Below are positions 3,620 through 21,869 of a stretch of 37,760 nucleotides of DNA, piece after piece. Numbering within the stretch: the stretch's first letter is position 1; each line of letters begins with the position of its first letter. The notes beneath the pieces were generated by a model that worked only from the letters and a program-made list of their open reading frames with translations, ran no database searches and had not been told where the DNA came from. A program made the position numbers and the translations under genes. Source of the stretch: Curvularia clavata (lineage: Eukaryota); assembly GCA_023920165.1 (NCBI GenBank), contig CP089276.1:4712001-4749760 (forward strand), in the 5' to 3' direction.

Positions 3620-3768
3620 TAGTTCTTTTATACTTAGATTAATACTAGTTATTCTATTTTCTAATAGAATTAGTTTTTATCTATTTTTACTATTTCCTAC
3701 TACTAAATTGCTAGACAACTACCTTACAGTATACTTTATAGAAACTAGTTTTACTCTAATCTAGAATC

Positions 3769-4039
3769 TGTAACCATGCATAGACCAAAACATACCCCAG
3801 CCAGGGCAGCTTATCAAGATCCGATTGAGAGCCGGGTCAGACCCGATGAAGACCCGCACCCAGGTATAAGTACCAGGTACCTTCCATAGATGTTCGGTAG
3901 ATTTTTGATATCCTTTCGTACCAGGCCTATGAGTGTCTACCGAATCCAAGGTGTTTCTGCTGTCCCACGCACTTCCATATGCATTTGAGTGACACTTCCC
4001 ACCGGAACCGATTCGACTAGTCTTGCTCGCGCCGTTACA
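3769..4039 (+). repeat. 5' LTR of element A
   Basis: TGTAAC...GTTACA, a direct repeat of 10694-10964, with TATA-like TATAAG near 3865. Confidence 0.97.
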
Positions 4040-4334: not shown

Positions 4335-5525
4335 ATGGCTGACCGAACCCCATCCGGCTCAGGAGAGCTTTCCAGGAAGTCGCCGCGCTTCCAAGATTCG
4401 AAGTCAAGAGAGAAGACGCCTGGCAAACCGCCAGCCGTCGAAGAGGAAGAGGATTCGGAAGAGGATGAGACTAGCCTCCTTCGGGCAGAGATCGACAGGC
4501 TAAACGAACAAATCGCACGGCTGTCCCGCCAAAACACCGCAGCCCCAGATCAACCTCTCCCCTCCACCGAATCACCACCGACTATCGCTGAACCAACCGA
4601 AACTCAATTCGGAAGGTACCAGTCAGCAACCCCGGACCTGCTACGTGTCAAACTCACAGAACGTACCCCTTCCATTGATAACCTTAGTGATGGAACAGAA
4701 CCTACGTTCCGCCAATGGCAAGCGTCAATAGAGGACCGCTTAACAATCAACGCGGACCATTATCGGAGTGAACGCGCACGCATGGCTCTAGTCTGGGGAC
4801 ATACTACAGGTATCGCCAAGGGATACCTGGAACCACAGTACCTAGCCGATTCGGTGGAGGACCGGTTCCAAAACGCCGAAGATATGATAGCTACTCTAAA
4901 ATCATACTTCGTATCCGGCAACGAGCAAGCGGAAAGCCGCGCTGCTTTCCACCGCTTGCTCATGGACAAAAAGGAAACCTTCGCTGAATTTAAGGCAAAA
5001 TTTATAAGTGCTGCCGTCAAAGGATCCGTATCGAAGTCGGAGTGGTTTTTCTACTTATGGGAAAAAATTACCCCCGCCTTGCGTGTTCCAAACTTGGGAT
5101 TTAAACACCAGTGGAACAACTCCTTTGACAAGATGATACAACACCTTACTGCCTTCGATACCGAAAGAAGGAACACTCCTTTCGGACACGGTTCGGAACC
5201 CACTTCCAATAATTCTCGTACTCCACCAACGAAGCCCCGCGTCAGTCAATACCGGGACTACCGCCCAAACACTTATGGAGTCCGATCCGAACCAGCTCCG
5301 ACCCAATCTCGCGCTCATTCTAATACCCCCAGGTTCCCTTCAAAGACCCCCGCACTGGATAGCAAACCGACTACTAGCAATTGCTATAACTGCGGAAAAC
5401 CTGGACATTATGCGAATGAGTGCCCCATTCCTCGGGTTCGAGAAATCGAAGCAGAGAAGGAAGAATTCGAAGAAGCACACGAATACTTATCGGAGGAGGA
5501 CCGGGCGGGAAACCACCAGGCCTAG
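4335..5525 (+). CDS. gag: Gag of element A (396 aa)
   Basis: Retrotransposon gag-like helical core and C-terminal zinc knuckle CYNCGKPGHYANEC. Confidence 0.95.
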   Translation: MADRTPSGSGELSRKSPRFQDSKSREKTPGKPPAVEEEEDSEEDETSLLRAEIDRLNEQIARLSRQNTAAPDQPLPSTESPPTIAEPTETQFGRYQSATPDLLRVKLTERTPSIDNLSDGTEPTFRQWQASIEDRLTINADHYRSERARMALVWGHTTGIAKGYLEPQYLADSVEDRFQNAEDMIATLKSYFVSGNEQAESRAAFHRLLMDKKETFAEFKAKFISAAVKGSVSKSEWFFYLWEKITPALRVPNLGFKHQWNNSFDKMIQHLTAFDTERRNTPFGHGSEPTSNNSRTPPTKPRVSQYRDYRPNTYGVRSEPAPTQSRAHSNTPRFPSKTPALDSKPTTSNCYNCGKPGHYANECPIPRVREIEAEKEEFEEAHEYLSEEDRAGNHQA

Positions 5526-8500
5526 GAAAACTCTCCGCCCTAGGCATGAACAAGTACGATCTAGCTAAAATTGATTTATCCCACTTGTTCGGAGGAAAAC
5601 ACTTCCTAGTACCCACCGTTCTTTGTTCGAAAGGGTTTGGTGTCAGCTTGCACTCCTTAGTTGACACTGGAGCCCAAGGCTTTTTATTCTTAAATTCTGC
5701 TATTGCTCGTACCCTCTCCGGCTCCCTTCAGGTCCCCATCCGAAGACTTCCCTTCAAGATCACAGTCAAAGGATTTCAGGACCAAGTCCAAACTAGGGTA
5801 GACAAATATATTCGGTTACATATCCGAATCGATGGAAGAAAGATTTACAACTGTCCCTTCGTGATCATGGATCTAGGGACACAGGACTGCATAATTGGAA
5901 TCAAGTGGTTAAGACGTTTCCAGCTTAGGCTTGATACGAGCCGGAACCGGATCGTATGGCCGGCCAAGTACCCTCCAACATATGATCCCGCGCCACCTAT
6001 CCTTGTACAGTTGAAACAACCTTCCATCGATGCTGATGTGGAACGGGACATACAGAGGCGAGACGCACTATGGGAAAAGGACAACTACCGTAGGCAAAAC
6101 AGTCCTCGCAAAGCTCTCATGCGAAGAATTAGAGGATGCCTCAAACTTCCCAAGGTTCGTCTACCACTACCTGTTCCCGACCCTACTCCGGACCCTATCC
6201 GACCAACATCTTCACCCCGTATCGCCATCATTTCGGCAAATGCTTTCCATTATTCTATGAAGCGTAAGGAAAACGAGTTCTTCACGACAAGTATCTATGA
6301 GATCGATCGCATCTTAGAAGAGCGCATGAAGCCAGACGATCCCGAAAACGCCAAACTTGTTCGGGACCGACTTCCATCCGCTTACCATTCGTACCGCGAT
6401 GTCTTCAGCAAGACAGCGGCAGAGCTACTGCCCGAACATCGCCCATACGATCATAAGATTGTGCTGACCGAACCTCTTCCGAATCAATTCAGTCCTCTGT
6501 ACAAGCAGAGCACTGAAGAACTCGAAGCCACCAAGACGTTCGTAATGGAAAACCTTAGGAAAGGACACATTGACCCAAGCCACTGCCCCTTCGCCTCCCC
6601 AGTCCTTTGTGTTCGGAAGCCAAACGGAGACATTCGCATCTGTGTAGATTACCGCCGACTCAACGCAATCACCAGAAAGGATGCGTATCCGATACCACGC
6701 ATTGACGAGCTTCTAGCCCGCACCCACAAGGCGAAAATCTTCACCAAGCTCGACATACGTGCGGCATTCAACAAGATCCGAATGCACCCCGACTCGGAGG
6801 AGTACACCACGTTCCGCACTAGATACGGAACCTACAAGTCCAAAGTGTTGCCTTTTGGATTATGCAACGGCCCTGCAACATATCAACGCTACATGAATGA
6901 TGTGTTGATTGATTATCTAGACAGCTTCTGCATAGTCTACCTAGACGACATTTTGATCTACTCCGAATCGGAACCGGACCACCCCCGCCACGTACAACAG
7001 GTCTTGGAAAGGCTTAGGCAAGCCGGTCTCCAAGTTGACATCAAGAAAAGCGAATTCCATGTCACTCGGACCAAATACCTAGGGTACATTTTGACCAACC
7101 AAGGTCTAGAGGTGGACCCTGACAAGGTGGAAGCCCTTCAAGATTGGGTCCGACCTACCACCGTTACTGGTGTGAAGTCGTTCCTAGGGTTCACTGGGTT
7201 CTACAGGCAGTTCGTTCCTGAATACTCGCGAATTGCGAAACCTCTCCTCGCCCTCCAGAGCCCCTCAAGACCATTCGTATGGGATTCGGAGTGCGACCAA
7301 GCCTTTGAAAGGTTAAAATCTGCACTGCTGGCAATTCCCACCTTGTACCACTACCATCCAGAGTATGATACCAAGGTGGAGACCGACGCGTCCGATGGCG
7401 TTGTGGCAGGCGTTCTTTCCCAAAAGCAGCCAAATGGAAATTGGTGTCCTGTAGCATTCTTCAGCAAGGTCCTATCCGGGTCTGAGCTGAACTGGGAAAT
7501 ACACGACAAAGAACTATTCGCCATCGTAACGGCGTTTAGCAAGTGGCGACCTGAACTGCTGTCGGTACGCTCTCGTGTCGACGTGTACTCAGACCACCGT
7601 TCCCTTGAATACTTCATGACTACCAAAGTTCTGAATGCCCGCCAGGTGCGATGGGCGGAAGAGTTGGCATCCTTCAATTTCCACATCCGATACACCCCCG
7701 GAAAGGATAATGCTCGTGCTGACATCCTCTCCCGACGGGAGCAAGATGTGGGGAATCTGAAGACAGCCCAAATTGACAACCGTTCGCGGGTCCTCCTGGG
7801 ACCGCACCGACTTGACAACCGAATCAACTCCGAACTTGCTAAGACCTATGTAGCCCAACTCCAAGCGGAATCTTTCTCCTTACTTGTAGTTGAGCCCATA
7901 TCGGAGCCGATGTCCCTCGATTCGCTGGAGCTGATCGAGTCTATCCTACAAGAGAACCGAGCCTCGTTTGGGGCAGAGCGAAGGTCCCTTCCGGACAGAT
8001 ACCGGATCGAAAACGGACTCCTGCTCTATTCCAACCGCCTATGCATTCCTTCCACCTCTACCCTTGTGACTCGCCTCATTCGGGAAGTACACGACCAGGT
8101 ATCCTCAGCGCACCCCAGTGCAAAGAAGACCTACCAACTACTGTCCCAGAAGTACCACTGGAAGGGTATGGAATCCACCTGTAAAAGGTATGTGCGGAAT
8201 TGCATAGCCTGTAGGAAGGCCCATCCTAGACAGACCCGAATTCCAGGGATGATTCATCCTTTGCCAATTCCTGACCGGCCGATGCAGCACCTGTGCATCG
8301 ACTTTAAGGAATTTCCCCGAGACCGATCCGGTTACGACATGATCATGGTCGTGATCGACCGGTTATCTAAGCAGGCCATCTCCATCCCCTGCCACAAGAC
8401 TATTGATGCAAGGGGAATGGCCGACCTATTCGTTCAATGGGTGTACCGATTTGGCCACACACCTGAAACCATAGTCTCTGACCGAGGACCACAGTTCATT

Positions 8501-9442
8501 TCAAGCTTCTGGTCGGAATTCTGCCGAATCCTAGGCGTTAAGGTCAAGCTGTCAACCGCCTACCACAAAGAAACGGATGGTCAGACAGAGATTATGAATA
8601 AGTACATCGATCAGAGGTTGCGCCCATTCGTATCCTACTACCAAGACAACTGGAGTGGACTTCTACCTTTGATCGATCGTGCTCAAATTTCCCTACCACA
8701 TTCTTCCATTGGCATGTCCCCGTACCACATCCTATATGGTTCCGAACCCCGGCAGAGTTGGGACTGGAAACATTCCACCAGCCTTCTCACCCCCACTGAC
8801 AAACTCAACCATAAGGATGCATTGGAAATGGCTACCCGCATGCACGACGCATGGAAGGTAGCTAAGGAACAAATGGAGAAAGCCCAGGACAGGATGCGAA
8901 CCACAGTCAACCGCCATCGTCGTTCTGTTGACTGGGATGTGGGAGACATGGTCTTCCTAAGTACCCGGAACCTCGCGTCAGACCGTCCGAGTAGGAAGCT
9001 ATCCTCCAAATGGGAGGGACCCTTCAGGGTACTTGAGAAGGTAGGACATTCATACCGCTTGGACCTTCCGAAAAGGTCCCGGATCCATGATGTCTTCGCC
9101 CCGGATCTATTATGCAAAGATCCTCAAGACCCCCTCCCAGGACAAGAACCTCCAAAGCCCCCAGCAACTCCCATCCAAGGCGTGGAAGAATGGGAGGTAG
9201 AAGAAATCCTAGCAAGCAAGTTGTACCGCTCAAACCTAAAATACCAAGTACGGTGGGTCGGACATGACCCGGATCCTACCTGGTACCCAGCCTCAAACTT
9301 CATGGGAGCCCCACACAAGCTCAAACTCTTCCATGAACAACATCCCACCAAACCGGGACCCCCACGTTCCCTTGGCAAGTGGATCACGGCATGGGAACAA
9401 GGCACAGAGGATATGACTTCACTGCAGGATGACAAAATTTAA
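5420..9442 (+). CDS. pol: Pol of element A: protease, RT, RNase H, integrase, chromodomain; probably entered by frameshift near 5510
   Basis: DTGA protease, YLDDILI RT, ETDAS RNase H, HHCC and SDRGPQF integrase, and EEWEVEEIL...YQVRWVG chromodomain, in gypsy order. Confidence 0.97.
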   Translation: MPHSSGSRNRSREGRIRRSTRILIGGGPGGKPPGLGKLSALGMNKYDLAKIDLSHLFGGKHFLVPTVLCSKGFGVSLHSLVDTGAQGFLFLNSAIARTLSGSLQVPIRRLPFKITVKGFQDQVQTRVDKYIRLHIRIDGRKIYNCPFVIMDLGTQDCIIGIKWLRRFQLRLDTSRNRIVWPAKYPPTYDPAPPILVQLKQPSIDADVERDIQRRDALWEKDNYRRQNSPRKALMRRIRGCLKLPKVRLPLPVPDPTPDPIRPTSSPRIAIISANAFHYSMKRKENEFFTTSIYEIDRILEERMKPDDPENAKLVRDRLPSAYHSYRDVFSKTAAELLPEHRPYDHKIVLTEPLPNQFSPLYKQSTEELEATKTFVMENLRKGHIDPSHCPFASPVLCVRKPNGDIRICVDYRRLNAITRKDAYPIPRIDELLARTHKAKIFTKLDIRAAFNKIRMHPDSEEYTTFRTRYGTYKSKVLPFGLCNGPATYQRYMNDVLIDYLDSFCIVYLDDILIYSESEPDHPRHVQQVLERLRQAGLQVDIKKSEFHVTRTKYLGYILTNQGLEVDPDKVEALQDWVRPTTVTGVKSFLGFTGFYRQFVPEYSRIAKPLLALQSPSRPFVWDSECDQAFERLKSALLAIPTLYHYHPEYDTKVETDASDGVVAGVLSQKQPNGNWCPVAFFSKVLSGSELNWEIHDKELFAIVTAFSKWRPELLSVRSRVDVYSDHRSLEYFMTTKVLNARQVRWAEELASFNFHIRYTPGKDNARADILSRREQDVGNLKTAQIDNRSRVLLGPHRLDNRINSELAKTYVAQLQAESFSLLVVEPISEPMSLDSLELIESILQENRASFGAERRSLPDRYRIENGLLLYSNRLCIPSTSTLVTRLIREVHDQVSSAHPSAKKTYQLLSQKYHWKGMESTCKRYVRNCIACRKAHPRQTRIPGMIHPLPIPDRPMQHLCIDFKEFPRDRSGYDMIMVVIDRLSKQAISIPCHKTIDARGMADLFVQWVYRFGHTPETIVSDRGPQFISSFWSEFCRILGVKVKLSTAYHKETDGQTEIMNKYIDQRLRPFVSYYQDNWSGLLPLIDRAQISLPHSSIGMSPYHILYGSEPRQSWDWKHSTSLLTPTDKLNHKDALEMATRMHDAWKVAKEQMEKAQDRMRTTVNRHRRSVDWDVGDMVFLSTRNLASDRPSRKLSSKWEGPFRVLEKVGHSYRLDLPKRSRIHDVFAPDLLCKDPQDPLPGQEPPKPPATPIQGVEEWEVEEILASKLYRSNLKYQVRWVGHDPDPTWYPASNFMGAPHKLKLFHEQHPTKPGPPRSLGKWITAWEQGTEDMTSLQDDKI
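5507..5550 (+). other. -1 ribosomal frameshift signal of element A
   Basis: Slippery heptamer G GGA AAC (5507-5513) in the gag frame, followed by the stem GCCTAGG...CCTAGGC. Pol is in the -1 frame. Confidence 0.8.
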
Positions 9443-9540: not shown

Positions 9541-10208
9541 TCAAAGTTCAACATCAGAGCGCTCCTGCTCAGCGTCGGCCATCTCCTGGTCAACCGCACC
9601 CTTGTCCTCCTCTGAGGAGGAGGACAAACCAGACCATTCCTCCGACTCCTCGACCCGAGGGCCGACCCGGGCGCCACCCCGAGCCGACCTGGCCTCAAGA
9701 CGCGAAAGGCGCCTTTCCATGCCATTGACTGTATCGACCAACTCCGAGATGCTGTCTCGGATGTCCCTCAGGACCTGGTTCTGGGCGACGAGGAGCTGAT
9801 TGACTGAAAGCTCCTTCTCCTGGGACCTGACAACTTGGACCTTGCGGGCGATGTCCAAAGCGGCGGCAGCGATTCGATCAAGCAATACCTCCGTATCGGC
9901 ATCAACTGCAGGGCCATACCAAGCGATGGCACACAACTCGATGGCATCGATCAAATCGTGAAACTCCTCGAAGACGTACTCGGGAACCTATCCGGGTTAG
10001 CCAAGCTGCAAACAGTGAAGGAAAAGAGAAGCAAACTTACAGGATCGCACTTCTCCTTCTGCTGGGTGCAATAAAGACACTTCTTGGAGGAATCGGACGG
10101 GTAGGCGTAAGCAATGTCGAACTGACGGCGCGCCAAGGCGCGGACAGCTCGCAGACAGATGAAGCGATACGCATCCGGCAGCGCACCGGGCGGACAACGA
10201 AGAGGCAT
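9541..10208 (-). CDS. Antisense accessory gene of element A; two exons (10208-10041 and 9987-9541), about 204 aa; Cys cluster, coiled coil and acidic tail
   Basis: A 53-bp phase-0 intron (10040-9988) with GTAAGT donor, GCTAAC branch site and TAG acceptor joins ...KKCLYCTQQKEKCDP to VPEYVFEEFHDLIDAIEL... in frame. Confidence 0.8.
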
Positions 10209-10693
10209 AGCGAAAACGAGTGCGTTGAGTTGTAATTGACTTGTTTTGATTGAGAAGCGTGGAGGAGAAAACTCGGCGGCGACACTGTGTTGTTGTTGAT
10301 ATACACACTGGGGGAGCAAACAGTCTTGGCACACGTGACCTGGATAGCCGTTGGACCCTGACTACAAACGAATCGCCGGCGACTCGGAGCTCCGATCGAA
10401 GCGTCCAGGCCTGTCTGGCAGGTGAAGGCAAACGGCCTAGCGGCCAGGCAGCAAGGCAGCAGCGCCACGTGAGTACCGGAATGGTCACTGAGGCTCAGGC
10501 ACAGAGGCTCAAGTGAAGGACATGCACGGCCACGGGAGCCACACCGGAACCGGAGCATCCTATTGCCCGAAGTGGCGCAGTGTGGGGAAAATCTGGGGGA
10601 AATCAGGAACGAGGGACCCCATGGTGCAGGGAAGAAGAATGACAACCGGAACAGACAGCTGTGGGACCAGCTGTCTACCGGGAGGGGGGGTAA

Positions 10694-10964
10694 TGTAACC
10701 ATGCATAGACCAAAACATACCCCAGCCAGGGCAGCTTATCAAGATCCGATTGAGAGCCGGGTCAGACCCGATGAAGACCCGCACCCAGGTATAAGTACCA
10801 GGTACCTTCCATAGATGTTCGGTAGATTTTTGATATCCTTTCGTACCAGGCCTATGAGTGTCTACCGAATCCAAGGTGTTTCTGCTGTCCCACGCACTTC
10901 CATATGCATTTGAGTGACACTTCCCACCGGAACCGATTCGACTAGTCTTGCTCGCGCCGTTACA
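10694..10964 (+). repeat. 3' LTR of element A
   Basis: Reads identical to 3769-4039. Confidence 0.97.
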
Positions 10965-11895
10965 GAATCTAGACTAGATAAGTATATTCCTACTAACGTA
11001 GGACCCTATATAATATTTTAACTACCTATAGATTTAGTAAGCAGTTTAATAGCAAGTATCTAATTAAAATATTACTATATTACGCAACTTTAATAAGTAT
11101 ATTAATGTCTAGAGACCGGCTCCCGTATAAGATATTAATATGGCCAGTAGTATCTAGGGAGTGGGCAACGAACACGCCCTAAGGACTTCTGAGTAGGAAC
11201 TTGCTAATTTTAGATATAAGCACTAGACTTAGGTATAGCAGATAATTAAAATATGGAATATAGTTAATTAGCTTATAAATTAGCTAATAGCTATGCTAAA
11301 TAAAAAGATTATTAAAAAATCTAAGATAGCAACTTCTAAGAAATATAGCAGAAATTATAATAATCTATAAATATTCTTTACTACTATTAACCTATACTAC
11401 GAATTTAATAAAGTATTTAGTAATTAAAAGAAGATTTTTATAGCTAGTATATATATAAAAAGAAAAGCGGCTAATAAGATCTAACTATATATAGAAGACT
11501 ATCTATTATTAGTAAAGACTAAAGAGACTAGAGATAAGAATAAAGCCCTATTTGCAGATTAGAATAGCTTTAAGGAAGAGATAGAATATATCTTTAGAGA
11601 AATCAATACTAGAAACTAAGTAGAAAAAGCGATTATACGCCTAAAGCAGACTATATCTATTTTAGTTTATATAGCTGAGTTCAAGTAGCTATAAGCGCGA
11701 ATTAATTAGAATAACGCAGCTCTTCGAATGGTATTCGAAGACGGTCTAAAGGAAATTGTTAAAGACGGTCTAGTATACTATAATAAGCTAGAAATATTGC
11801 AAACTCTAATTAAGCTAGCTACGCGAATTAATAATAGAATTTAGGAACGAAATAAATAAAAGAAATGTTAATTCTATCCTAATATAGCTAATACT

Positions 11896-12402
11896 TGTTA
11901 CAAGTAACAGAAAGGATTCTCTCCTTGACAAGAGACAGCGAGGTTGGAAGCCAACCACGTCCACGTCAGAAGGTAAGTGATTGTGCAGAACAACGATCAC
12001 GTAATATAGCCTTCTACTAAATACAAATATCCTACTAAAAAAGAGATGCTAGTAGGACTAGAGAAGCTACGTCCTCTCTAACCTCCTAACATATAATAGA
12101 AATTAGAGAAGCTAGAGAGAATAGGACGGGAAGTATGTAATAGGTATAAGAATGTGTTAGATTTCATTATTATACTCGTTATAGTTAACTTAATAAAGTA
12201 TCTTTTATAGTTACCTTTTATACTTAGATTAATACTAGTTATTCTATCTTTAATAGAATTAGTTTTGTCTATCTTTATTATTCTCTACTACCAAATCGCC
12301 AGACAACTACCTCACGGTATACTTCGCAGAAACTAGCCTCGCCCTAATACGGAACCTAGGCTAGGTAAGTATATTCCTACTAACGTAGGACCCCGTGTAA
12401 CA
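11896..12402 (+). mobile_element. Solo LTR (B' subfamily, 507 bp), RIP-mutated
   Basis: TGTTACA...TGTAACA with TSD ATACT on both sides. Confidence 0.93.
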
Positions 12403-12489
12403 ATACTAAGAAATAACGCAATAACTAGAATAAGAACGGCGATACTATTATGACTAGGAAAGTACAAGAAAAGACTAGAGATAGAAAAC

Positions 12490-12880
12490 TAGACTGGTAA
12501 ACGGGTATTGACCCACTTTTCTTCTTTCATCAATGTCTCATCAAAGACTAGTCCAAATCGAGTAATTCTGACGTCATTTTAATGCCCTAAGCTAGCGCAT
12601 TCTATCATGTAATATAAAGCTAAGCCGTATCTAGCTTAGTTCAAAAGTTATTTAATAGCCCGTTTGTGAGCCCTAGGGCTGGGTTATGAGTCGGGTATAC
12701 CCCTATTTTTACTCCTTTTTTAGCTCTAGCACTAGTACTATCAGTGTTAAGCTAAAATAATATATTAGTAATATTTAGACTAGAGTGCTAGCTCTCTAAT
12801 GACGTCAGAATTACTTGATTTGGACTAGTATTGGCCAAGATAATCGATAGCCCTAGCTAAATACCCGATTTACCAGTCTA
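12490..12880. mobile_element. Non-autonomous hAT-type element/MITE (391 bp)
   Basis: TIR TAGACTGGTAAA(T)CGGGTATT, 8-bp TSD TAGAAAAC, and an inner inverted repeat of about 32 bp (ACTAGTCCAAATCGAGTAATTCTGACGTCATT). Confidence 0.88.
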
Positions 12881-13384
12881 TAGAAAACCCTAAGGAAAGG
12901 GCTAAGACAGTCTTTCTAAGAAGGAACGCTAAAAGCGTAATAATAAAGCATATCTCTGCTATAGTAAAATAGAATACTTCTACAAAGACTACCTAAAGAA
13001 TAAAGTTAAATAGGCAGTAGTAAAAATCAAGATACTAAAGCTATAGCCATCTACACTGCCACCTGATGACGACCTTGGTGATCTAGACCTCTACAATAAA
13101 GCACGTCTAGCTAAGAATGATAACTATATAATCGTTCTAGAGCTTCTTAAAGTAGACGAATATATAAACTAGAAAGTGCCGTAACTATCTAATGTTACAA
13201 GTAATAAGAAGGATTCTCTCCTTAACAAGAGACAGCGAGGTTGGAAGCCAACCACGTCCACGTTAGAAGGTAAGTGATTTCATAGGGCAACAATCACGTA
13301 ATATAGCCTCCTACTAAGTACGAATATCCTGCTAAAGAAGGGATACTAGTAGAACTAGAGAAGCCATATCTTTCTCAACCTCCT

Positions 13385-13891
13385 TGTTACACGGGGTCCT
13401 ACTGGTTAGTTGGGAATATACTTACCTAGCCTAGATTCCGGGTTAGGGCGAGGCCAGTTTCTATGAAGTATACCGTGAGGTAGTTGTCTGGCGATTCGGT
13501 GGTAGGGATTAACGGAAGATAGACAAAACCAATCCTATTGGAAGATAGAATAACTAGTATCAATCTGAGTATGAAAGGTAACTATGAAAGATACTTTGCT
13601 GAGTTGACCACAACGAGTGTAATAATGAAATCCAACACATTCTTATACCCATTGCTTCCGGTCCTGTCCTCACTGTCCTCACGGAATAACCCCTGTGTTC
13701 TCTGAAGTCCCTGAAGTCACTTTGGTCACGTGTGAGCGTGTCCTCACATACTAGCGTGGTTTCCCGGTCTTGGCCTGAGGCCAGTCATGTGATCGCCCTT
13801 CCGCGGGGATCATTACCTTCTGACGTGTCGCCCAATGGTCTCCTACCTGCGGCCATCGTCAAGGAGAGATCCTTCTTTGTTACTTGTAACA
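13385..13891 (-). repeat. 3' LTR of element B
   Basis: Direct repeat of 20296-20802. Confidence 0.97.
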
Positions 13892-16800
13892 TTATCCCCC
13901 CTCTTAGGGTTATCGTCCCGATACCCTGGATTATCGTTTTCCCGTGCGTCGCTTGGCGCTGGTGGCTTGGATAAGTATCGAGGTATGCCCGTTGTGTCGT
14001 AGGCGCTTCTTCCTCCATGCCTTCCTAACCATGCCCAAGGTTCAACCAACTCGTCGTGTCCGTAACCAGAATTCGACTCTTCAGCGTCGGGCCCGCGCTG
14101 ACCGTATAAGGGAACAAGGCCGCGAGATGACTTTTCGGTGTAAACGTTGTGAAGAGAAGAATCTTCGTTGTTTCGTGGACACAGCATCTGGTCGCTGCGC
14201 TGGTTGTATTTCGGTTTCCGCTGAGTGTAGCCTTTTTGTTTCTGAGGAAGAGTGGGAGAAGGTCGAGGCTGAGAAGCGGCAAAAGCGTCTCGAGATTGCT
14301 CGTGCTGAGGAGCGCCAGCTTCAGGCTGCGATGGAGACTGCGCGACTTCGGCGCGAGCTCCTAGAGGTTGAGGCGCGAGAGCGAGAATTTGCTGATCGAG
14401 ATCATGCCATCTTGAGCCTTCAGGATCGTGCGCAAGAGCAGGCCGAGGGGAGCTCCGCCCCTGGTACGGACCATCCGACAACCGAACCATCGCTACCCGG
14501 ACTGTCGACTGACTTGGGCTGGTTACAGGCTGACGTTTCTTACGACCCTTTTTCACTTGATTATTTCCTTTCCCTCGAGGGTCCGTCCCTCGCTTCCGTG
14601 GATGTTTCCGATGGTACTCGCGTACCAGTGACCTGCAGTTCGTCAAGTTTCCTTCAGGTTCCCAAGTGTTGTGGCTATCTGGCCATCCTTCCCACCTGAC
14701 CAAGTACTTCCACTGACCGCCTATTTTCTGTAGGTCCTTGATTTCTTCGACCGTATATTCGTCGTCCTCGAGCTCGATATCGTCCATTAGCTCGGCTTCT
14801 GGGGGTGCAGGTTCTAGCAGTTTCTTGTGAAAAACGTTGTGTATGCGCATGCCTGGTGGTAGCCGTAGTTTATAGTTTACGGGTCCCATTTTCTCTAGGA
14901 TTTCGAATGGTCCTAATCGGAGATTGTCCAATTTCTTGCTTGGTCGTTTAGTTTTCAAGTTTTGTCGTGACAAGAAAACTCTGTCCCCCTTTTTAAAGGT
15001 TGGTCCCTCAATCCTTAGCTTATTCGCAGCTTTGGACGTCGTGAGGTTCCTATGAGCGATGTTCCTGCTCAATTCTTTATGCAATTCGCGCATTAGTCGG
15101 GCTTTATCGTCTGCTCCGACTGCGATACTTTCAATATCCTTTGGATCTCGATGAGCAACCGGCTCATATCCGTAGTTCGCGTAGTGTGGCGAGTACTTCG
15201 TTGTCGCCGATCTTGAACTATTGTAAGCCAATTGTGCTGTCGGCAAGAGTTCAACCCAGTTGTCCTGCAGCTTGTTGGCGTAAAATCGCAGATACTGTTC
15301 TAGCGTTTGGTTTGTTCGTTCCGTTTGTCCGTCGGTTTCTGGGTGGAAGCTAGTCGATAGCTTCTTCTTAACTCCCAGTTTTGCTAAGAACGTTGACCAG
15401 TATTTCGATGTGAACAGCTTATCTCTGTCCGTTATGAATTCTTCGGGCATCCCGTGCTCTGATATTAGTGCTTTGGAAACTTCGTACGCGCATTCCTCTG
15501 CCGTAATTGTTTCTTCTGTGGGCACAAACTTTGCCCCTTTGGTCTGTCGACACATTATGACCAAAATGGTGTCGCAGAGTCGAGCCGATCCTGGCTCTAA
15601 CGATTTCGGGAGCTTCACTATGAAGTCCATCGTTACGCTGCTCCATGGTCGCGTTGGTGGCGGTAAGGGTTGTAACAGGCCATAGGGCTTATGTCTTTTG
15701 GGCTTGTTCTGGTGACATGCCACACAGTTGCCTACAACTTCCTGCACCTGCGCCCTCAAGCGCGGCATATAAAACGCCTTATTCAGTCGCCTGACCATTT
15801 CGTCGATGCTTGCATGTCCGTATTCTCGTGACTCATGCAGTTCTTTGATGAGATCTTTTCTCATGTGCGTGGGTACGTAGGGTCGACTCTCGTTCCGCGG
15901 CTCACCTTTGTTCTGTAGCCCGTTGAGTTCCTTTTGTCCGTCCAATGGTACCCATTCATTCGCTTTTTGTTGCCATTGCTGTTGCAACGTTTCCACTTGC
16001 TCGGCTATCTTGGCTAATCTAGCCAGATCCGGCTGGTTGTACCTCAAGCTGCCGTCGGGCATTCTCTTGAGTACTGCGTCGTGTGGCTCTTTGTGGCCTT
16101 TTCCGCGTAAATCGGATCTTCGGCTCAGAGCATCCGCGGCTCCGTTGAGCGATCCTGCTCGATGCGTGATTTTGAAGTCAAACTGAGCTAACATCTCAGC
16201 ATATCGGACTTGTCTTCGGTTGAGTTTCTTCGTTGTCATAAAACTCGTGAGGTTCTGATGATCGGTAAAAACCTCGATCGTGTGTGGAAGTCCTAACAGG
16301 TATACTTCCCATTGTTCAAAGGCATCGACTACTCCAAGTAGTTCCTTATCGTGAACATCGTAGTTCAACTCTGCTTCGTCGAACTTTCTGGAATGGTAGA
16401 ACACGGGTCTCCATTTCCCATCTGGGCACTGCTGTGACAATACAGCTCCGAGTGCGTAATCAGACGCGTCAGTCTCGAGTCTGGTTGGTCGTTGAGGATC
16501 GTACATCTCTAGTACGGGTGCCTCTAGGAACGTCTGCTTGAGCTTGTCGAAAGCTTTCTGTTGTTCCTGTTTCCATCTGAAACCTACTTCCTTCTTCGTG
16601 ATCTCCGTAAGGGGTGCTGTGATCTTCGAATAATCTTTTATGAACTTCCGGTAGTAGTTCGCTAGCCCTAGGAAGGACTGAACATCCTTAACTGTTTTGG
16701 GCGTTTTCCAATCCCGTACAGCCTGTACCTTTTTTGGGTTCATTTTCACTCCTTCGGTCGAGATGATGAATCCGAGGAATTCCGTTTCCTGCGTGTGGAA

Positions 16801-18354
16801 TTCGCATTTCCCTGGCTGCAGATATAGCTTGTATTCCTTGAGCTTTCTGAGCACTTTCTTGACATGTTCGATGTGTTCTTCGAGCGTTCCCTTGGAGTAC
16901 ACTAGTACATCGTCCAAGTAAGCTGTTGCGAAGACACCAAGGTATTCGTGGAGAGCGTTGTTGATGACTGATTGAAAGGTCGCCGGCGCATTCGTTAGGC
17001 CGAACGGCATGACCGTATACTCGAACAGTCCATACTTCGTCTTGAACGCTGTTTTCCATTCGTCTCCTTCCTTGATCCTGATCCGATAAAATCCTTCTCG
17101 GACATCGAACTTCGTGAACCACTTGGCTCCCTGGAGTCGATCCATGAGCTCTGTTATGAGTGGTAGTGGGTACCGATTCTTTCGGGTTACCGCGTTCAAC
17201 CTTCGGTAATCGACACATAGTCGCCATTTTCCGTTAGGTTTCTTTACGAACAATATGGGTGAGGCCATCGGGCCTGACCCCGGTCTGATGAATCCTTTCT
17301 TAAGATTCTTCCGGAGGTATTCCTTGAGCTCGGCGTCGTGCTCGGGCGATATAGGATACATGCCTCCTGGCGTCAACTTTGCTCCATCCTCGAGGATGAT
17401 CTCGTGATCCCAATCCTGATGTTCTGCTAAGTCTGTTGCCTCGTTTTCTTCGAATAGTTCCTTGAACTCATTCGTTCTGTATTCTTTAGGAATGTCCAAC
17501 AATACGTCTTTGGGCTTTTCCTGGGGTAAGGGTCTGTCCTTCTTGGGCACGACTCGTCTTAACCAAATGACTCCTACTTGCTGAGGGTCCTTCGCATAGA
17601 TTCTCGCGATCTTATGCGGTGAGATCTTGCCGAATCTCCCATCCCGGGTTGTGCACTGATTCGTCGGGCGTATCTCATGTCGTACTCCAGCAACCCTTTT
17701 CGCAGGTTCTCGGCTGAGTATCGTTCTGTTTCGCCAGTCGATGGCGGGGTTATGGGCATCCAGCCAGTCATAACCGATCAATAGATCCGTTTCTCCTAGA
17801 TCCATAATGCTAATGCTCATTTGACTCTTGGTATCGGACACCTCCAGTGTCACCAGTTCTGTCTCGAGCCTTATCGTGCCTTTGCCGTATGCTACGGGCG
17901 TTTCTTCGGCCGATATTACCTGTAGCGGACGCTTCTTGCTCCGGTATGGTATTTCGTACTTCTCTACCACTCGGGGTGAGATCATTGTTCGTGCGGCACC
18001 GCTGTCTACGATTGCCTGTAATTTGTGTCCCTGTACATACACGGTCGTTACCAATTCCTTTGGGCGATCATCGGTGTAATGTACTCGTCTTAGGGTCGTT
18101 TTAGGACTGCCTTTACCAGCGTGACCCTGTCCCTGGTGGCATCCTAGTTTTTTGACGGTCCCCTGGACCCAAGCTTCTTTCCCTTTCTTTTCCGCGGAAA
18201 GTAGCCATGGTTCTGTTTTGCGTCCAGGTGGATTCTGCAGTTGTCGTCTGTGCAGAAGGTCCAGTGTTCGTTTGGGTGGGGGATCATTTCTTCCAGCGTC
18301 TCTGGCAGGTTGATCTCCTTTGTCCCGTGCATCCTGCACTTGATCGTCCGGCAT
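13843..18354 (-). CDS. pol: Pol of element B (protease, RT, RNase H, integrase, chromodomain) with a long C-terminal extension ending inside the LTR; probably entered by frameshift near 18150
   Basis: DSGA, YLDDVLV, ETDAS, HHCC, TDRD and EYTVEEI...YLVRWEGW..HNTWEP motifs. Confidence 0.97.
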   Translation of the reverse strand: MPDDQVQDARDKGDQPARDAGRNDPPPKRTLDLLHRRQLQNPPGRKTEPWLLSAEKKGKEAWVQGTVKKLGCHQGQGHAGKGSPKTTLRRVHYTDDRPKELVTTVYVQGHKLQAIVDSGAARTMISPRVVEKYEIPYRSKKRPLQVISAEETPVAYGKGTIRLETELVTLEVSDTKSQMSISIMDLGETDLLIGYDWLDAHNPAIDWRNRTILSREPAKRVAGVRHEIRPTNQCTTRDGRFGKISPHKIARIYAKDPQQVGVIWLRRVVPKKDRPLPQEKPKDVLLDIPKEYRTNEFKELFEENEATDLAEHQDWDHEIILEDGAKLTPGGMYPISPEHDAELKEYLRKNLKKGFIRPGSGPMASPILFVKKPNGKWRLCVDYRRLNAVTRKNRYPLPLITELMDRLQGAKWFTKFDVREGFYRIRIKEGDEWKTAFKTKYGLFEYTVMPFGLTNAPATFQSVINNALHEYLGVFATAYLDDVLVYSKGTLEEHIEHVKKVLRKLKEYKLYLQPGKCEFHTQETEFLGFIISTEGVKMNPKKVQAVRDWKTPKTVKDVQSFLGLANYYRKFIKDYSKITAPLTEITKKEVGFRWKQEQQKAFDKLKQTFLEAPVLEMYDPQRPTRLETDASDYALGAVLSQQCPDGKWRPVFYHSRKFDEAELNYDVHDKELLGVVDAFEQWEVYLLGLPHTIEVFTDHQNLTSFMTTKKLNRRQVRYAEMLAQFDFKITHRAGSLNGAADALSRRSDLRGKGHKEPHDAVLKRMPDGSLRYNQPDLARLAKIAEQVETLQQQWQQKANEWVPLDGQKELNGLQNKGEPRNESRPYVPTHMRKDLIKELHESREYGHASIDEMVRRLNKAFYMPRLRAQVQEVVGNCVACHQNKPKRHKPYGLLQPLPPPTRPWSSVTMDFIVKLPKSLEPGSARLCDTILVIMCRQTKGAKFVPTEETITAEECAYEVSKALISEHGMPEEFITDRDKLFTSKYWSTFLAKLGVKKKLSTSFHPETDGQTERTNQTLEQYLRFYANKLQDNWVELLPTAQLAYNSSRSATTKYSPHYANYGYEPVAHRDPKDIESIAVGADDKARLMRELHKELSRNIAHRNLTTSKAANKLRIEGPTFKKGDRVFLSRQNLKTKRPSKKLDNLRLGPFEILEKMGPVNYKLRLPPGMRIHNVFHKKLLEPAPPEAELMDDIELEDDEYTVEEIKDLQKIGGQWKYLVRWEGWPDSHNTWEPEGNLTNCRSLVREYHRKHPRKRGTDPRGKGNNQVKKGRKKRQPVTSPSQSTVRVAMVRLSDGPYQGRSSPRPALAHDPEGSRWHDLDQQILALAPQPLGARAEVAQSPSQPEAGAPQHEQSRDAFAASQPRPSPTLPQKQKGYTQRKPKYNQRSDQMLCPRNNEDSSLHNVYTEKSSRGLVPLYGQRGPDAEESNSGYGHDELVEPWAWLGRHGGRSAYDTTGIPRYLSKPPAPSDARENDNPGYRDDNPKRGDNVTSNKEGSLLDDGRR
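14031..14699 (+). CDS. Antisense accessory gene of element B (222 aa): Zn(II)2Cys6-pattern domain, coiled coil and acidic/hydrophobic tail
   Basis: ACCATG start. CKRC-EEKNLR-C-FVDTASGR-CAGC-ISVSAE-C matches C-x2-C-x6-C-x8-C-x2-C-x6-C and is followed by an E/R/K-rich helix. Confidence 0.85.
   Translation: MPKVQPTRRVRNQNSTLQRRARADRIREQGREMTFRCKRCEEKNLRCFVDTASGRCAGCISVSAECSLFVSEEEWEKVEAEKRQKRLEIARAEERQLQAAMETARLRRELLEVEAREREFADRDHAILSLQDRAQEQAEGSSAPGTDHPTTEPSLPGLSTDLGWLQADVSYDPFSLDYFLSLEGPSLASVDVSDGTRVPVTCSSSSFLQVPKCCGYLAILPT
18104..18153 (-). other. -1 frameshift signal of element B
   Basis: Slippery A AAA AAC directly before the gag TAG, then TGCC-ACCAG...CTGGT-aaa-GGCA with loop GGAC able to pair with downstream GTCC (possible pseudoknot). 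Confidence 0.78.
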
Positions 18355-20234
18355 TCCTTAGCCGCGATCGTGCCGTGCAGATGGTGATCTGCATGTCTTG
18401 CCGCGATTCTCTGTTCTCGGTGGAATCGGCATTTCTCTATGCAGTTGATCCAGCAGAGCTGCTCGTGAGCTCGTTGATGTTCTTCCTTGTGGATGTGGCA
18501 ATCCAGCATGGGGCAGTCGTTTGCCCATAGATGCTTGTGATTAGGATCATGCTCGTCCAACTTGCATTGTTCTTTAGCATCTGAGTGGAACATACAAAAC
18601 CTCCTTTTGCATTCGTTCCAGGCGATCATTTCGTGATCGTCGTGTTGCTTCCATGGTGCGTGGATGGTGCAATCCAATACCTTGCATGCTTCACTTCTTA
18701 AGTGTGCGTGGCAACATTCTTCTGCGTCGTACTGGGACAGTCTCGATTCTTCGGCATGGAACTCGCAGTAGTCTATACTGTCGCATTCGATCCAGTGCAG
18801 CTTTCTATGTTCGTCTTCGCGGTCGTTTTCTGGTTCCGGTAGCTCGTCCTTAAAGTACGGTTGTTCCTGGGCTGCCTGGGCAAGTACTTCCCTGGCCATC
18901 GGCCCTGTGACTGCAATTCTTCTTCCTCGAAGTGGGCAGCCATTGCCGTGGTGTGCTGGGTCTCCGCACATCCAGCATAAGTTTTGTGCGATCCGACGCT
19001 GGGCATCTGTGTCCTTCACGATCCAGTCGGATGGCTGTGGTGGTTCCCATTTCATGTGTTTGTCCGCTCTGACGAGCTCCGGGACAATCACATAATCCGT
19101 GTTCTCAGCTAGACGTGCTTCGTCGTAGAGGTCTAGATCGCTGAGGTCGTCGTCGGAGGGTAGTGTAGATGGCTGTGACTTCAGCATCCTGATCTTTACT
19201 ACTGCCTGCTTGACTTCGTTCTTCGGGCAGTCTCTGCGGAAGTGTCCTACTTCGCCGCATCGGAGACATGCTTTGTTGTCATAACGCTTCTGGCGTTCTT
19301 CCTTGGAAAGGCCGTCCTGGCCCTTTCCTCGGGGTTTCTTGTCTCTGGTCTTTTCTTGTACTTTTCCCGTCATGATTGTATCGCCGTCCTTGTCTCGGTT
19401 GTTGCGTTGTTTCTTGGTGTTAGCCATGTTGGGTCGAAATTGCCGTTTCTTTTGTTCGTTTCGTTCCCAGATCCTATTGTCGATTCGCGTGGCCAGCTCA
19501 ATCAGAGCTTGTAACGTTTCTGGCTTATCATGGTGTACTAGACCGTCTTTGACAATTTCCTTCAGACCGTCTTCGAATACCGTTCGAAGAGCTGCGTCGT
19601 CCCAATCAATTCGCGCTTGTAGCTGCTTAAACTCAGCTGTGTAAGCCGAAACGGACGTGGTCTGCTTCAGGCGTGTGATCGCTTTCTCTGCTTGGTTCTT
19701 GGCGTCGACCTCTCCGAAGACACGTCCCATTTCATCCTTGAAGTTGTTCCAACTTGCGAATAGGGCCTTGGTTTCTTCCTTGGTCCCTTTGGTCTTTATT
19801 GACGATAGGTAGTCCTCCACATATGGTTGGACCCAGTTAGCCGCTTTTCCTTTCATATGCGTACTGGCCATGAGGATCTTTTCCTGATCACTAGGTACCT
19901 CGTTGAATTCGCAGTATAGGTCGATGGTGGTGAGGAACGTTCGTAGGTCGTTACGGTTTCCGTCATACTTTTCGGGAGTTGCCATCTTAGGTTTCTTGAC
20001 AACCTTTTCGTTTGGCGTAGCCATCAGCTGACTCATAAGCTGATTAACCATATTCTGCATTTCGATCATCTGCTGTGCCTGAGCCTGGTGCTCGCGTCTG
20101 AGATTGGCAAGTTCCCACTCAGGAGTCCCTGGGGCATGCTCGTTGCCCACTCCCTGGGTGCTTCCGGCCATGTTGATGTCCTGTGCGGGAGCCGGTCCCT
20201 GGACGTTGACATACTCGTTGGAGTTGCGTGACAT
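18144..20234 (-). CDS. gag: Gag of element B (696 aa) with two CCHC knuckles and seven His/Cys repeats
   Basis: PEKYDG...LKQTTSVSAYTAEF core, CLRCGEVGHFRRDC and CWMCGDPAHHGNGC. Confidence 0.95.
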   Translation of the reverse strand: MSRNSNEYVNVQGPAPAQDINMAGSTQGVGNEHAPGTPEWELANLRREHQAQAQQMIEMQNMVNQLMSQLMATPNEKVVKKPKMATPEKYDGNRNDLRTFLTTIDLYCEFNEVPSDQEKILMASTHMKGKAANWVQPYVEDYLSSIKTKGTKEETKALFASWNNFKDEMGRVFGEVDAKNQAEKAITRLKQTTSVSAYTAEFKQLQARIDWDDAALRTVFEDGLKEIVKDGLVHHDKPETLQALIELATRIDNRIWERNEQKKRQFRPNMANTKKQRNNRDKDGDTIMTGKVQEKTRDKKPRGKGQDGLSKEERQKRYDNKACLRCGEVGHFRRDCPKNEVKQAVVKIRMLKSQPSTLPSDDDLSDLDLYDEARLAENTDYVIVPELVRADKHMKWEPPQPSDWIVKDTDAQRRIAQNLCWMCGDPAHHGNGCPLRGRRIAVTGPMAREVLAQAAQEQPYFKDELPEPENDREDEHRKLHWIECDSIDYCEFHAEESRLSQYDAEECCHAHLRSEACKVLDCTIHAPWKQHDDHEMIAWNECKRRFCMFHSDAKEQCKLDEHDPNHKHLWANDCPMLDCHIHKEEHQRAHEQLCWINCIEKCRFHREQRIAARHADHHLHGTIAAKECRTIKCRMHGTKEINLPETLEEMIPHPNEHWTFCTDDNCRIHLDAKQNHGYFPRKRKGKKLGSRGPSKN

Positions 20235-20295: not shown

Positions 20296-20802
20296 TGTTA
20301 CACGGGGTCCTACTGGTTAGTTGGGAATATACTTACCTAGCCTAGATTCCGGGTTAGGGCGAGGCCAGTTTCTATGAAGTATACCGTGAGGTAGTTGTCT
20401 GGCGATTCGGTGGTAGGGATTAACGGAAGATAGACAAAACCAATCCTATTGGAAGATAGAATAACTAGTATCAATCTGAGTATGAAAGGTAACTATGAAA
20501 GATACTTTGCTGAGTTGACCACAACGAGTGTAATAATGAAATCCAACACATTCTTATACCCATTGCTTCCGGTCCTGTCCTCACTGTCCTCACGGAATAA
20601 CCCCTGTGTTCTCTGAAGTCCCTGAAGTCACTTTGGTCACGTGTGAGCGTGTCCTCACATACTAGCGTGGTTTCCCGGTCTTGGCCTGAGGCCAGTCATG
20701 TGATCGCCCTTCCGCGGGGATCATTACCTTCTGACGTGTCGCCCAATGGTCTCCTACCTGCGGCCATCGTCAAGGAGAGATCCTTCTTTGTTACTTGTAA
20801 CA
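20296..20802 (-). repeat. 5' LTR of element B
   Basis: Direct repeat of 13385-13891, with TATAAG on the minus strand near 20553-20558. Confidence 0.97.
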
Positions 20803-20902
20803 CTCCTAGCACGTAATAGAAATTAGAGAAGCTAGAGAGAATAAAATAGGAAGTAATAGATATAAAAATATATTAGATTTTATTATTATACTTATTATAG
20901 TC

Positions 20903-21418
20903 TGTAAGAAAGTTGTAGGTAGGTAAATAGGATAACTTTCTTAATTAACTAAAATAGCTTATTAAGAGGTGAGAAATAGATATAAAATATCTAGTAAGTG
21001 GTCAAAATGTAGGTAATAAGTAGATATATTGGAGCTAGGTTATCAAATAACTATAGACAGTCAGCGTCTTTTATAGACAACTAACGGAGATAGGCGCTGC
21101 GTCTATTTCCTATCTTGATTTCAAATCAACTACTAGACTAAAGTATAATTAGATTAGTTTTTTATCTTTTTTTATGATTTATAAGATTTTATTATAGACT
21201 AAAATCTTTATAATCTAGCTTGCTTAGCAAGCTAGATCTAAAATATAGAATAATGACGTCTTATATCTAGATAAGAAAGCGGAGAAATACTTAAAATACT
21301 CGGCAGTTAATAGCTACATCAAATGTAGAGCTACAAGAACAAAAACAACTAATTTGAATAGCTAATCTTTTATAGAATAATACTAAAATATAATATAATA
21401 ATTATATTATAATTTACA
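20903..21418. mobile_element. Solo LTR (516 bp, RIP-mutated, family not seen elsewhere in the window)
   Basis: TGTAA...TTACA with TSD TAGTC on both sides. Confidence 0.85.
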
Positions 21419-21522
21419 TAGTCAACTTAGTAAAGTATCTTTCTATAGTCTTTTTATACTTAGATTAATACTAGTTATTCTATCTTCTAATAGAATTAGT
21501 TTTATCTATCTTTATTATCCCC

Positions 21523-21869
21523 TGTTAAAGTAATGGGTGACTGCTAGTACTACTAGTAGTAGACTTAGACAGCCTGATCGAGAGACTCTAGATAGACGAG
21601 AGATTGCTAGGGGAGAGAGTTGATAGACACGATTGACTTTTGTATAAACTGCTCTGGTTTCTATCTACTAGCTATTCTACTACTATATATATTGGCTGGA
21701 GTAGATTCTAGAAGAATCTATCTAGTAGTAGCTTGCGTAATCTTTGGCGTCATAGACAGATGTCTATAGATCGATTATAGTCTTGATAGATCGACTATAG
21801 ATTGTAGAATCTGGGTGTGACTGAGCACCCGGATACTGTAGATTAGCTGACTAGCTTAGATCTACAACA
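21523..21869. mobile_element. LTR with non-matching flanks (probable recombinant solo LTR)
   Basis: TGTT...AACA ends. It shares the GGGTGTGAnnGAGCACCCGGAT hairpin with the copia LTR at 36934. The flanks TCCCC and GTGTA come from different host elements. Confidence 0.65.

Follow-up and report, generated by a model that had tools for sequence, protein, structure and literature searches.

Opposite-strand accessory genes at the 3' ends of two different Ty3/gypsy chromoviruses of Curvularia clavata

The window analysed here, meaning the whole stretch of 37,760 nucleotides (nt), belongs to the fungus Curvularia clavata (GenBank assembly GCA_023920165.1, contig CP089276.1, positions 4,712,001 to 4,749,760 of the forward strand), and all coordinates below count from its first letter. 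It contains two long terminal repeat (LTR) retrotransposons, termed element A and element B, each of which bears a third gene (gene A and gene B) on the strand opposite to its gag and pol. An initial annotation, made from the sequence alone, had placed an antisense accessory gene in the slot between pol and the 3' LTR of two different chromoviruses, and this claim is upheld by the conserved protein families of both genes, by the ratio of nonsynonymous to synonymous substitution rates (dN/dS) of gene B and by the intron site of gene A. It is very likely that both are real, conserved protein genes borne by the elements.

Two complete chromoviruses in opposite orientation

Element A lies on the plus strand. 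Its 5' LTR (3769..4039, 271 bp, TGTAAC...GTTACA) follows the target duplication GAATC at 3764-3768, and downstream are gag (4335..5525, with zf-CCHC), pol (5546..9442, encoding protease, reverse transcriptase, RNase H and integrase, with a chromodomain at residues 1216-1264 of 1298), a polypurine tract (10680..10693) and the 3' LTR (10694..10964), which is followed by the second GAATC at 10965-10969. Element B is read from the minus strand and consists of a 5' LTR (20296..20802; target duplication CTCCT at 20803-20807), gag (18144..20234; Retrotrans_gag, Ty3_capsid and zf-CCHC), a pol of 1503 amino acids (13843..18354; chromodomain at residues 1200-1250), a polypurine tract (13892..13905) and a 3' LTR of 507 bp (13385..13891; CTCCT at 13380-13384). 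The LTR pair of element A is 100% identical over 271 bp, and that of element B is identical over 507 bp, extending 207 nt past the 300-bp repeat that was first listed. According to Pfam, both pol proteins contain protease, reverse transcriptase, RNase H, integrase zinc and core domains, a Tf2-type SH3 domain and a C-terminal chromodomain, and both gag proteins contain zinc knuckles; with this domain order, TG..CA LTRs and 5-bp target duplications, each element has the features of a Ty3/gypsy chromovirus. The LTRs of the two elements have only their termini in common and the pol proteins are 36% identical over 1046 amino acids, in agreement with the unrelated LTRs and strongly diverged pol that had been noted initially. 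Elements A and B are two different, complete and recently inserted Ty3/gypsy chromoviruses in opposite orientation.

Gene A is a spliced gene with a family-wide intron site

Gene A is encoded on the minus strand by two exons. Exon 1 (10041..10208) starts with the ATG at 10208 and comprises 56 codons, including a cysteine domain (C18, C44, C47 and C54) and ending in C-x2-C-x6-C-D-P. It is followed by a phase 0 intron of 53 nt (9988..10040, GTAAGT...GCTAAC...TAG) and by exon 2 (9541..9987), which adds 148 amino acids and a stop codon and encodes three helices and an acidic tail. The spliced product of 204 amino acids is letter-for-letter identical to a database entry (P0121), an "uncharacterized protein" of Curvularia clavata. 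The gene is contained entirely between the pol stop (9442) and the LTR (10694). A 221-residue open reading frame (ORF) at 10037-10702 (minus strand) overlaps exon 1 in another frame; it has no family match and a low-complexity appearance, and is probably due to chance.

An exhaustive phmmer search yields 55 representatives of family A at E<=1e-3, 16 of them at E<=1e-10. Host names, looked up for 30 of these 55 and for the matches of one further search, include Pleosporales (Curvularia, Bipolaris, Exserohilum, Plenodomus, Didymella, Clathrospora, Zopfia and Polyplosphaeria) and Leotiomycetes (Diplocarpon, Cadophora, Stipitochalara and Pseudogymnoascus). Identical or near-identical paralogues occur on several contigs each in Curvularia clavata, Exserohilum, Plenodomus, Diplocarpon rosae and Pseudogymnoascus, as expected for the gene of a mobile element. 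C47, C54, S41, K43 and P58 are among the invariant residues, and the motif C-x2-C-x6-C is present in 69 of 90 distinct sequences. At the point where it ends, 34 of the 69 pass across the spliced junction, 33 run on into intron sequence and the remaining 2 do neither. The 33 unspliced-type sequences continue as C-x-P-V-[S/N/R/G/K/C] (P-V-S in 27) before they diverge or end, which matches a translated GTnAGT intron start. These 34 spliced and 33 intron-reading members indicate that the intron site is shared family-wide. An intron in a retroelement persists only on the strand that is not spliced from the genomic RNA, and the antisense placement of this intron agrees with that rule. Six cysteines (spacing x2, x10-13, x7-10, x2, x6) are found in 25 of the 69 members, while the protein of the window has four conserved ones.

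The AlphaFold2 model of protein A reaches a mean predicted local distance difference test score (pLDDT) of 80.6 and a predicted template modelling score of 0.60; the cysteine domain scores 91-97 and is accompanied by the three helices and a disordered acidic tail. Sequence profiles of the PDB match it only with designed helical repeats. Of 24 family A proteins, none matches DUF3716 of Pfam at E<=1. Searches of the ESM Atlas return unnamed Ascomycota clusters only.

Gene B has a conserved position and is under selection

The antisense ORF B (14031..14699, plus strand) encodes 222 amino acids, arranged as a basic N-terminus, a cysteine cluster (residues 37-66), a helix (residues 72-140) and an acidic motif (about residues 161-177). 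Both genes had been described as single ORFs antisense to pol at the 3' end and starting near the 3' LTR. Slot and strand are as described for both, and gene A turns out to be a two-exon gene; the overlap with pol is complete for gene B, which is covered by the C-terminal tail of pol, and is absent for gene A, which begins and ends beyond the pol stop. The start lies 140 nt from the LTR edge (13891) in element B and 486 nt from it in element A.

A word-indexed search detects 160 relatives of protein B at E<=1e-3. Among the 120 matches listed, identity ranges from 49 to 87%, and the hosts include Bipolaris, Exserohilum, Pyrenophora, Alternaria and Stemphylium, often with many copies per genome; several records are named "Zn(2)-C6 fungal-type domain-containing protein" in UniRef. 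In metagenome contigs, a relative of gene B with an open frame lies antisense over the end of a pol similar to that of element B at all seven loci found (L001 to L007), four of which retain near-full pol and gag. The LTR edge, the polypurine tract and the ATG of gene B keep a constant spacing of 134-155 nt, and the identity of gene B follows that of pol (78% versus 77% in L002; 49% versus 58% in L006). The gene is intact in all eight elements, the window copy included. These loci show that the slot of gene B is conserved across the element lineage.

The pattern of substitution was compared between the window and six loci, L007 being omitted since it encodes the same protein as L006. Over residues 1-190, pairwise differences at antisense codon positions 1, 2 and 3 amount to 0.27, 0.24 and 0.46, and within the cysteine cluster to 0.19, 0.13 and 0.50. 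Calculated for 21 pairs by the Nei-Gojobori method, the dN/dS of gene B lies between 0.05 and 0.34 with a median of 0.21, compared with a median of 1.29 (range 0.96-2.43) for the pol frame on the same DNA. From the third-position bias and this difference between the two frames it follows that selection preserves the antisense protein; a dN/dS near 1, which would have spoken against a functional gene B, is not what is measured. Some database relatives (P0095 and P0122) carry cysteine-to-tyrosine and similar changes of the G-to-A or C-to-T type, which fit repeat-induced point mutation of individual copies.

The gene B region is open in both directions

In the pol protein of element B, the chromodomain ends at residue 1250 and is followed by a tail of 253 residues (1251-1503) that terminates 46 nt inside the LTR. 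The frames are offset such that the third codon position of the antisense gene lies opposite the second position of pol. Stop codons of the pol frame are absent across gene B in 8/8 elements. When synonymous gene B codons are redrawn from their own usage, 3.8-5.7 such stops are expected per 570 nt, and a stop-free outcome appears in 0.05-0.55% of 2000 draws per sequence (P(0) = 0.0005-0.0055; the stop tests cover seven sequences, without L007). The other two minus-strand frames contain 2-8 stops, as expected. At codons where one synonymous ending would create a stop in the pol frame, that ending is used 0 times in 75, compared with 336 of 572 elsewhere, a contrast with a pooled Fisher p of 7e-27 across sequences that are related to each other. 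The position of the pol stop itself varies, being 40-292 nt inside the LTR in six of the eight elements and 57 nt short of it in two; in all eight it lies beyond the antisense ATG. The tail is rich in proline, serine, glycine and arginine, and 17% of its residues are hydrophobic versus 32% in the core of pol.

Judged by these codon statistics, the gene B region is dual-coding, combining a stop-free extension of pol with a selected antisense gene. Since the pol frame lacks stops at a dN/dS of 1.29, the openness of the tail is selected and its sequence is not. The tail may serve as a disordered extension, or the passage of ribosomes through the stretch may be what matters. One idea is that an open tail avoids a long 3' untranslated region, but element A tolerates the approximately 1250 nt that separate its pol stop from the LTR.

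A candidate intron would trim the C-terminus of protein B

Gene B contains a candidate intron of 96 nt (14638..14733, plus strand, GTTCGT...ACTGAC...TAG), the splicing of which would end the protein at residue 204. Four read runs (X1 to X4) were available as assembled contigs without strand information, and in X2 a contig with a depth of 8.7 joins 14637 to 14734; the 96 nt that it omits are bounded by GT..AG when read along the antisense strand. All six sequences that extend over the site retain the donor, the acceptor and a branch site of the form (A/G)CTGAC, and in five of the six the spliced frame ends in C-S-P-stop; without splicing, the ORF of L004-L006 terminates one or two codons past the donor. 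The junction and the conserved splice signals together suggest a working protein of about 200-204 residues. Codons 203-222 of ORF B (62 nt, 14638-14699) probably lie in the intron, and they probably owe their conservation to the chromodomain encoded opposite them.

The read contigs leave parts of the stretch uncovered, and their depth differs between genes. One X4 contig connects 9432, at the end of the element A pol, with 10822, halfway along the LTR. It passes over 1389 nt, its shorter arm measures 27 nt, and it could derive from a relative in which the region of gene A is divergent or missing.

Protein B and its comparison with protein A

The cysteines C37, C40, C47, C56, C59 and C66 of protein B are spaced x2, x6, x8, x2, x6, which is the Zn2Cys6 pattern (C-x2-C-x6-C-x5-12-C-x2-C-x6-8-C). 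Of 20 aligned relatives, 90% or more possess each of them, the exceptions being cysteine-to-tyrosine changes in P0024 and P0095, so that the conservation of cysteines proposed as a check on gene B is observed. Conserved basic residues stand beside the cysteines, and an acidic-hydrophobic motif that is likewise conserved follows downstream. Zn_clus of Pfam is the commonest weak match (17 of the 20 relatives at E<=1); in a second set of 60 relatives, 14 match it at E<=0.01 and three reach the curated 21-bit cut-off (21.4-21.8 bits). AlphaFold2 predicts a single helix at residues 72-140 with a pLDDT above 90, a cysteine region of moderate confidence and a disordered C-terminus. When residues 30-145 are modelled as a homodimer, the interface score ipSAE is 0.55 in three runs, compared with 0.00 for the best of three controls; the partner has a pLDDT of 87 and the runs share at least 98% of their contacts. 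The mark set by the tool is reached by 21 of 30 solved homodimers and by 0 of 23 solved monomers in a calibration on microbial proteins, and eukaryotic passes may reflect memory.

Proteins A and B are alike in the motif C-x2-C-x6-C, in their long helices and in an acidic or disordered tail, and the layout that had been proposed as common to both is thus present. BLASTP finds no similarity between them. Profile comparison (hhalign) places the C-x2-C-x6-C and helix start of A against the second half-cluster of B, with a probability of 39.8% for alignments of 20 and 21 sequences that falls to 2.8% for alignments of 34 and 91. Homology is therefore not claimed, and on the available alignments A and B are treated as two families in one slot.

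Surroundings of the elements

A block of about 35 nt at 13905-13940 (plus strand), beside the B-type polypurine tract, is conserved in 7/7 aligned sequences (window and L001-L006). Within it are an inverted repeat, TATCG..CGATA, and a third copy of TATCG. The block could serve as a context for plus-strand priming, as part of an antisense promoter or as a site bound by a protein. In the metagenome contigs L002, L003 and L004, the order of features is pol end, single LTR and gag-pol again. Either the assembly has merged both LTRs of a multi-copy element into one, or the contigs represent tandem forms or circles with one LTR.

AT-rich blocks at 11000-13384 and 20803-22000 (guanine-cytosine content 0.30-0.35) contain diverged repeats (1641-1739/12087-12185/20803-20901 and 11896-12087/13193-13384), and element B is inserted within one of these. 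The repeats look like old mutated relics, contrasting with the two pristine elements. Further direct repeats outside A and B are located at 32770-33066/34428-34724 (90% identical) and 482-771/35603-35892 (73%). A host gene at 25035-26942 (plus strand) encodes an ordinary Zn2Cys6 transcription factor (Zn_clus 28.8 bits, Fungal_trans_2 E 3e-38), which served as the canonical standard of comparison. Scans of the window with Rfam and for tRNA genes gave no matches.

Relation to known antisense genes

The kind of gene described here is already known, and genes A and B do not form a new class. The initial annotation had left room for earlier descriptions, rightly so: homologues of A and B are already annotated as hypothetical proteins, and an additional antisense gene, brtn, was published in 2011 for Boty-like Ty3/gypsy chromoviruses of Botrytis cinerea and Sclerotinia (Zhao et al. 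2011, Virology 417:248, as related in excerpts of PMC8365987, PMC7264820, PMC4227169 and PMC5987419). According to the excerpt of PMC8365987, brtn is missing from the current B05.10 annotation. As far as these descriptions go, brtn and genes A and B share a fungal chromovirus context (gag, protease, reverse transcriptase, integrase and chromodomain) and an opposite-strand gene between pol and the 3' LTR; the present case differs from brtn, which is compared here by its description, in comprising two unrelated protein families, of which B is overprinted on the pol tail. Proteins from Botrytis or Sclerotinia are absent from the 120 family B matches listed and from the 30 of 55 family A representatives that were named.

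Comparable antisense additional open reading frames (aORFs) of plants, designated aORF-3R, occupy the region from pol to the 3' LTR in maize Grande (gene23), rice RIRE2, Silene Retand and PvRetro13; the excerpts of PMC7264820 give their function as unknown and suggest a regulatory role. They resemble genes A and B in slot, in orientation and in being conserved within families, and some of their products are nuclear, the regulatory role being proposed and unproven in the same partial text. They are carried mostly by non-chromovirus Tat/Retand lineages, unlike A and B, and the parts of PMC7264820 that were available report no clear similarity to known proteins and no zinc-cluster motif. Genes A and B occupy the aORF-3R/brtn position inside complete elements; conservation in related copies is seen at 7/7 loci for B, and for A it takes the form of a protein family with multi-copy paralogues.

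Judged by titles and abstract beginnings, a literature search yields nothing relevant on a Zn2Cys6-type antisense gene in LTR retrotransposons, and no paper was found, by the same measure, on dual coding or overlap of an antisense gene with the pol tail in LTR elements. The word "antisense" does not occur in a survey of fungal LTR elements (PMC3248453) or in a survey of Cochliobolus transposons (PMC4112212). New here are the two populated families, the cluster of Zn2Cys6 type in B, the antisense intron found family-wide in A and the selected dual coding in B-type elements.

To our knowledge, extra antisense genes have stood in maps of LTR retrotransposons for 25 years, with a known function for none. 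The HBZ protein of human T-cell leukaemia virus type 1 is a small nuclear, dimerising regulator of the basic leucine zipper (bZIP) type with demonstrated function, and its transcript starts on the side of the 3' LTR and runs antisense to gag-pol. Genes A and B resemble it in being antisense genes on the 3' LTR side, and they differ from it in having a cysteine cluster instead of a bZIP and in showing no sequence relationship. A general likeness between antisense aORFs and retroviral antisense proteins is drawn in the excerpts of PMC7264820.

Possible functions of the antisense proteins

The reading that we favour, with a rough probability of 0.55, is that each element carries its own opposite-strand third gene of the aORF-3R/brtn type and that the product acts as a regulator. 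Transcription from an antisense promoter within or beside the 3' LTR would yield a short messenger RNA, the product of which would be a small nuclear protein that binds zinc via its N-terminal cysteine cluster. The protein would pair through its long helix and recruit partners with its acidic tail, and would thereby regulate the element itself, by acting on LTR transcription or chromatin state, or host genes. This regulatory function is our inference, and the transactivator, copy-number control and anti-silencing roles proposed initially are conjectural. For B in particular, a zinc-cluster nucleic-acid-binding dimer has a little less than an even chance; that A does the same job by means of an unrelated or very distant fold seems doubtful.

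The Gal4-type layout that had been proposed for both proteins is found in part. Protein B agrees with Gal4-type Zn2Cys6 factors (PF00172) in the spacing of six cysteines, the adjacent long helix and an acidic tail with its acidic-hydrophobic motif, and some of its relatives pass the Pfam cut-off; it differs from them in its size of about 200 residues and in lacking a middle homology or Fungal_trans domain. Protein A, with four cysteines in other spacing, lies outside this pattern.

Several results weigh against a regulator of this kind. Zn_clus matches the window copy of protein B with 12.9 bits, below the 21-bit cut-off, and matches 0 of 24 family A proteins at E<=1. The structural likeness to Gal4/Ppr1 that had been suggested is not found for either protein: the profile of B has no match in the PDB at E<=10, and Foldseek against the PDB gives none for B at E<=0.001 (best E 3.0) and generic helical matches for A (best E 0.33), while a wide structural search with A ends in generic helical hairpins (best Z 8.3, within the noise of the tool for helical models). 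The slot of family A is known from this window alone, and a scan of viral contigs with the single protein A returned no locus. As to expression, the only antisense-strand splice signal in the reads is the X2 junction of gene B, which comes from one contig of a gene B relative with a shorter arm of 30 nt, and the run concerned is only guessed to be RNA; X1 and X3 contigs span the intron of gene A unspliced, and X3 is the only run recorded as RNA. Unspliced contigs of this sort would also be expected from sense genomic RNA or from DNA. Finally, the modelled dimer of B is antiparallel (contacts 89-106, 96-96 and 70-120), which would put the two cysteine clusters at opposite ends, whereas the dimerisation element of Gal4 is parallel and brings two clusters onto one DNA site; and the sequence CGG-N-CCG is absent from the LTR and the upstream region of element B. 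The upstream region and LTR of element A contain eight such strings in a raw count, some of them overlapping.

The last two points suit a different role, in which the proteins would be life-cycle cofactors and not transcription regulators, aiding the export or packaging of genomic RNA, particle assembly or the targeting of integration, with a cysteine cluster that binds RNA or protein. The predicted antiparallel dimer would fit a scaffold better than a DNA clamp of the Gal4 type, zinc-binding cysteine clusters and long helices are not confined to transcription factors, and an accessory protein of a nematode LTR element is needed for the export of genomic RNA (excerpts of PMC10309623). We regard such a role as unlikely in view of the exact Zn2Cys6 spacing of B, its repeated Zn_clus matches and the acidic-hydrophobic tails, which are typical of activators. 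The antisense RNA itself might be the working product, either as a source of double-stranded RNA for small RNAs or through transcriptional interference, the protein being secondary. Both genes either converge on pol or overlap with it, which means that sense and antisense RNAs would pair, and LTR elements of Botrytis, including the brtn-bearing BcGypsy1, give abundant small RNAs (excerpts of PMC8365987). However, the dN/dS of gene B, the invariant cysteines and the confident fold of A indicate selection on proteins, which a role confined to RNA would not maintain, and this explanation is accordingly improbable.

It is very improbable that the genes are captured fragments of host genes, travelling as passengers without a role for the element. 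Gene capture by retroelements is known ("Origin of Antisense aORFs", excerpts of PMC7264820), and host Zn2Cys6 factors, such as the one encoded in the window, have an N-terminal module that B resembles; yet B co-diverges with pol down to 49% identity and stays intact in every element, the 120 family B matches listed include no closer host gene, and the profile of B does not align with the N-terminus of the factor in the window. Chance ORFs are practically excluded. Long antisense ORFs can indeed arise opposite real genes, and B overlaps an open pol frame, but the third-position bias in the antisense frame and the contrast in dN/dS refute this origin for B, as does the conserved intron site for family A.

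Implications for fungal retrotransposons

For a eukaryotic mobile element, a pol frame that stays free of stops while facing a selected antisense gene is a clear natural example of long antisense dual coding, and the window supplies two intact, probably active elements whose antisense genes are tied to two well-populated, expressible families. The favoured reading and the dual coding can be joined in a wider picture, which we consider unlikely to hold in full: B-type chromoviruses of the Pleosporaceae would make their own zinc-cluster, dimeric, nucleic-acid-binding regulator, overprinted on a translated extension of pol, and a second, unrelated lineage of A-type chromoviruses, ranging from Dothideomycetes to Leotiomycetes, would have filled the same slot independently with a different cysteine-domain protein. 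If this holds, one stretch of DNA would be read as protein both ways, and translation of pol would be physically coupled to expression of the regulator. Fungal chromoviruses would then depend as a rule on a factor of this kind, for instance to keep the activity of their LTRs under control or to weaken genome defence. Should B prove to be a zinc-cluster regulator, fungal retrotransposons would possess a transcription or chromatin factor of their own, comparable to the antisense regulators of complex retroviruses, and this would bear on how such elements escape or exploit genome defence and on the small RNAs produced from them in plant-pathogenic fungi.

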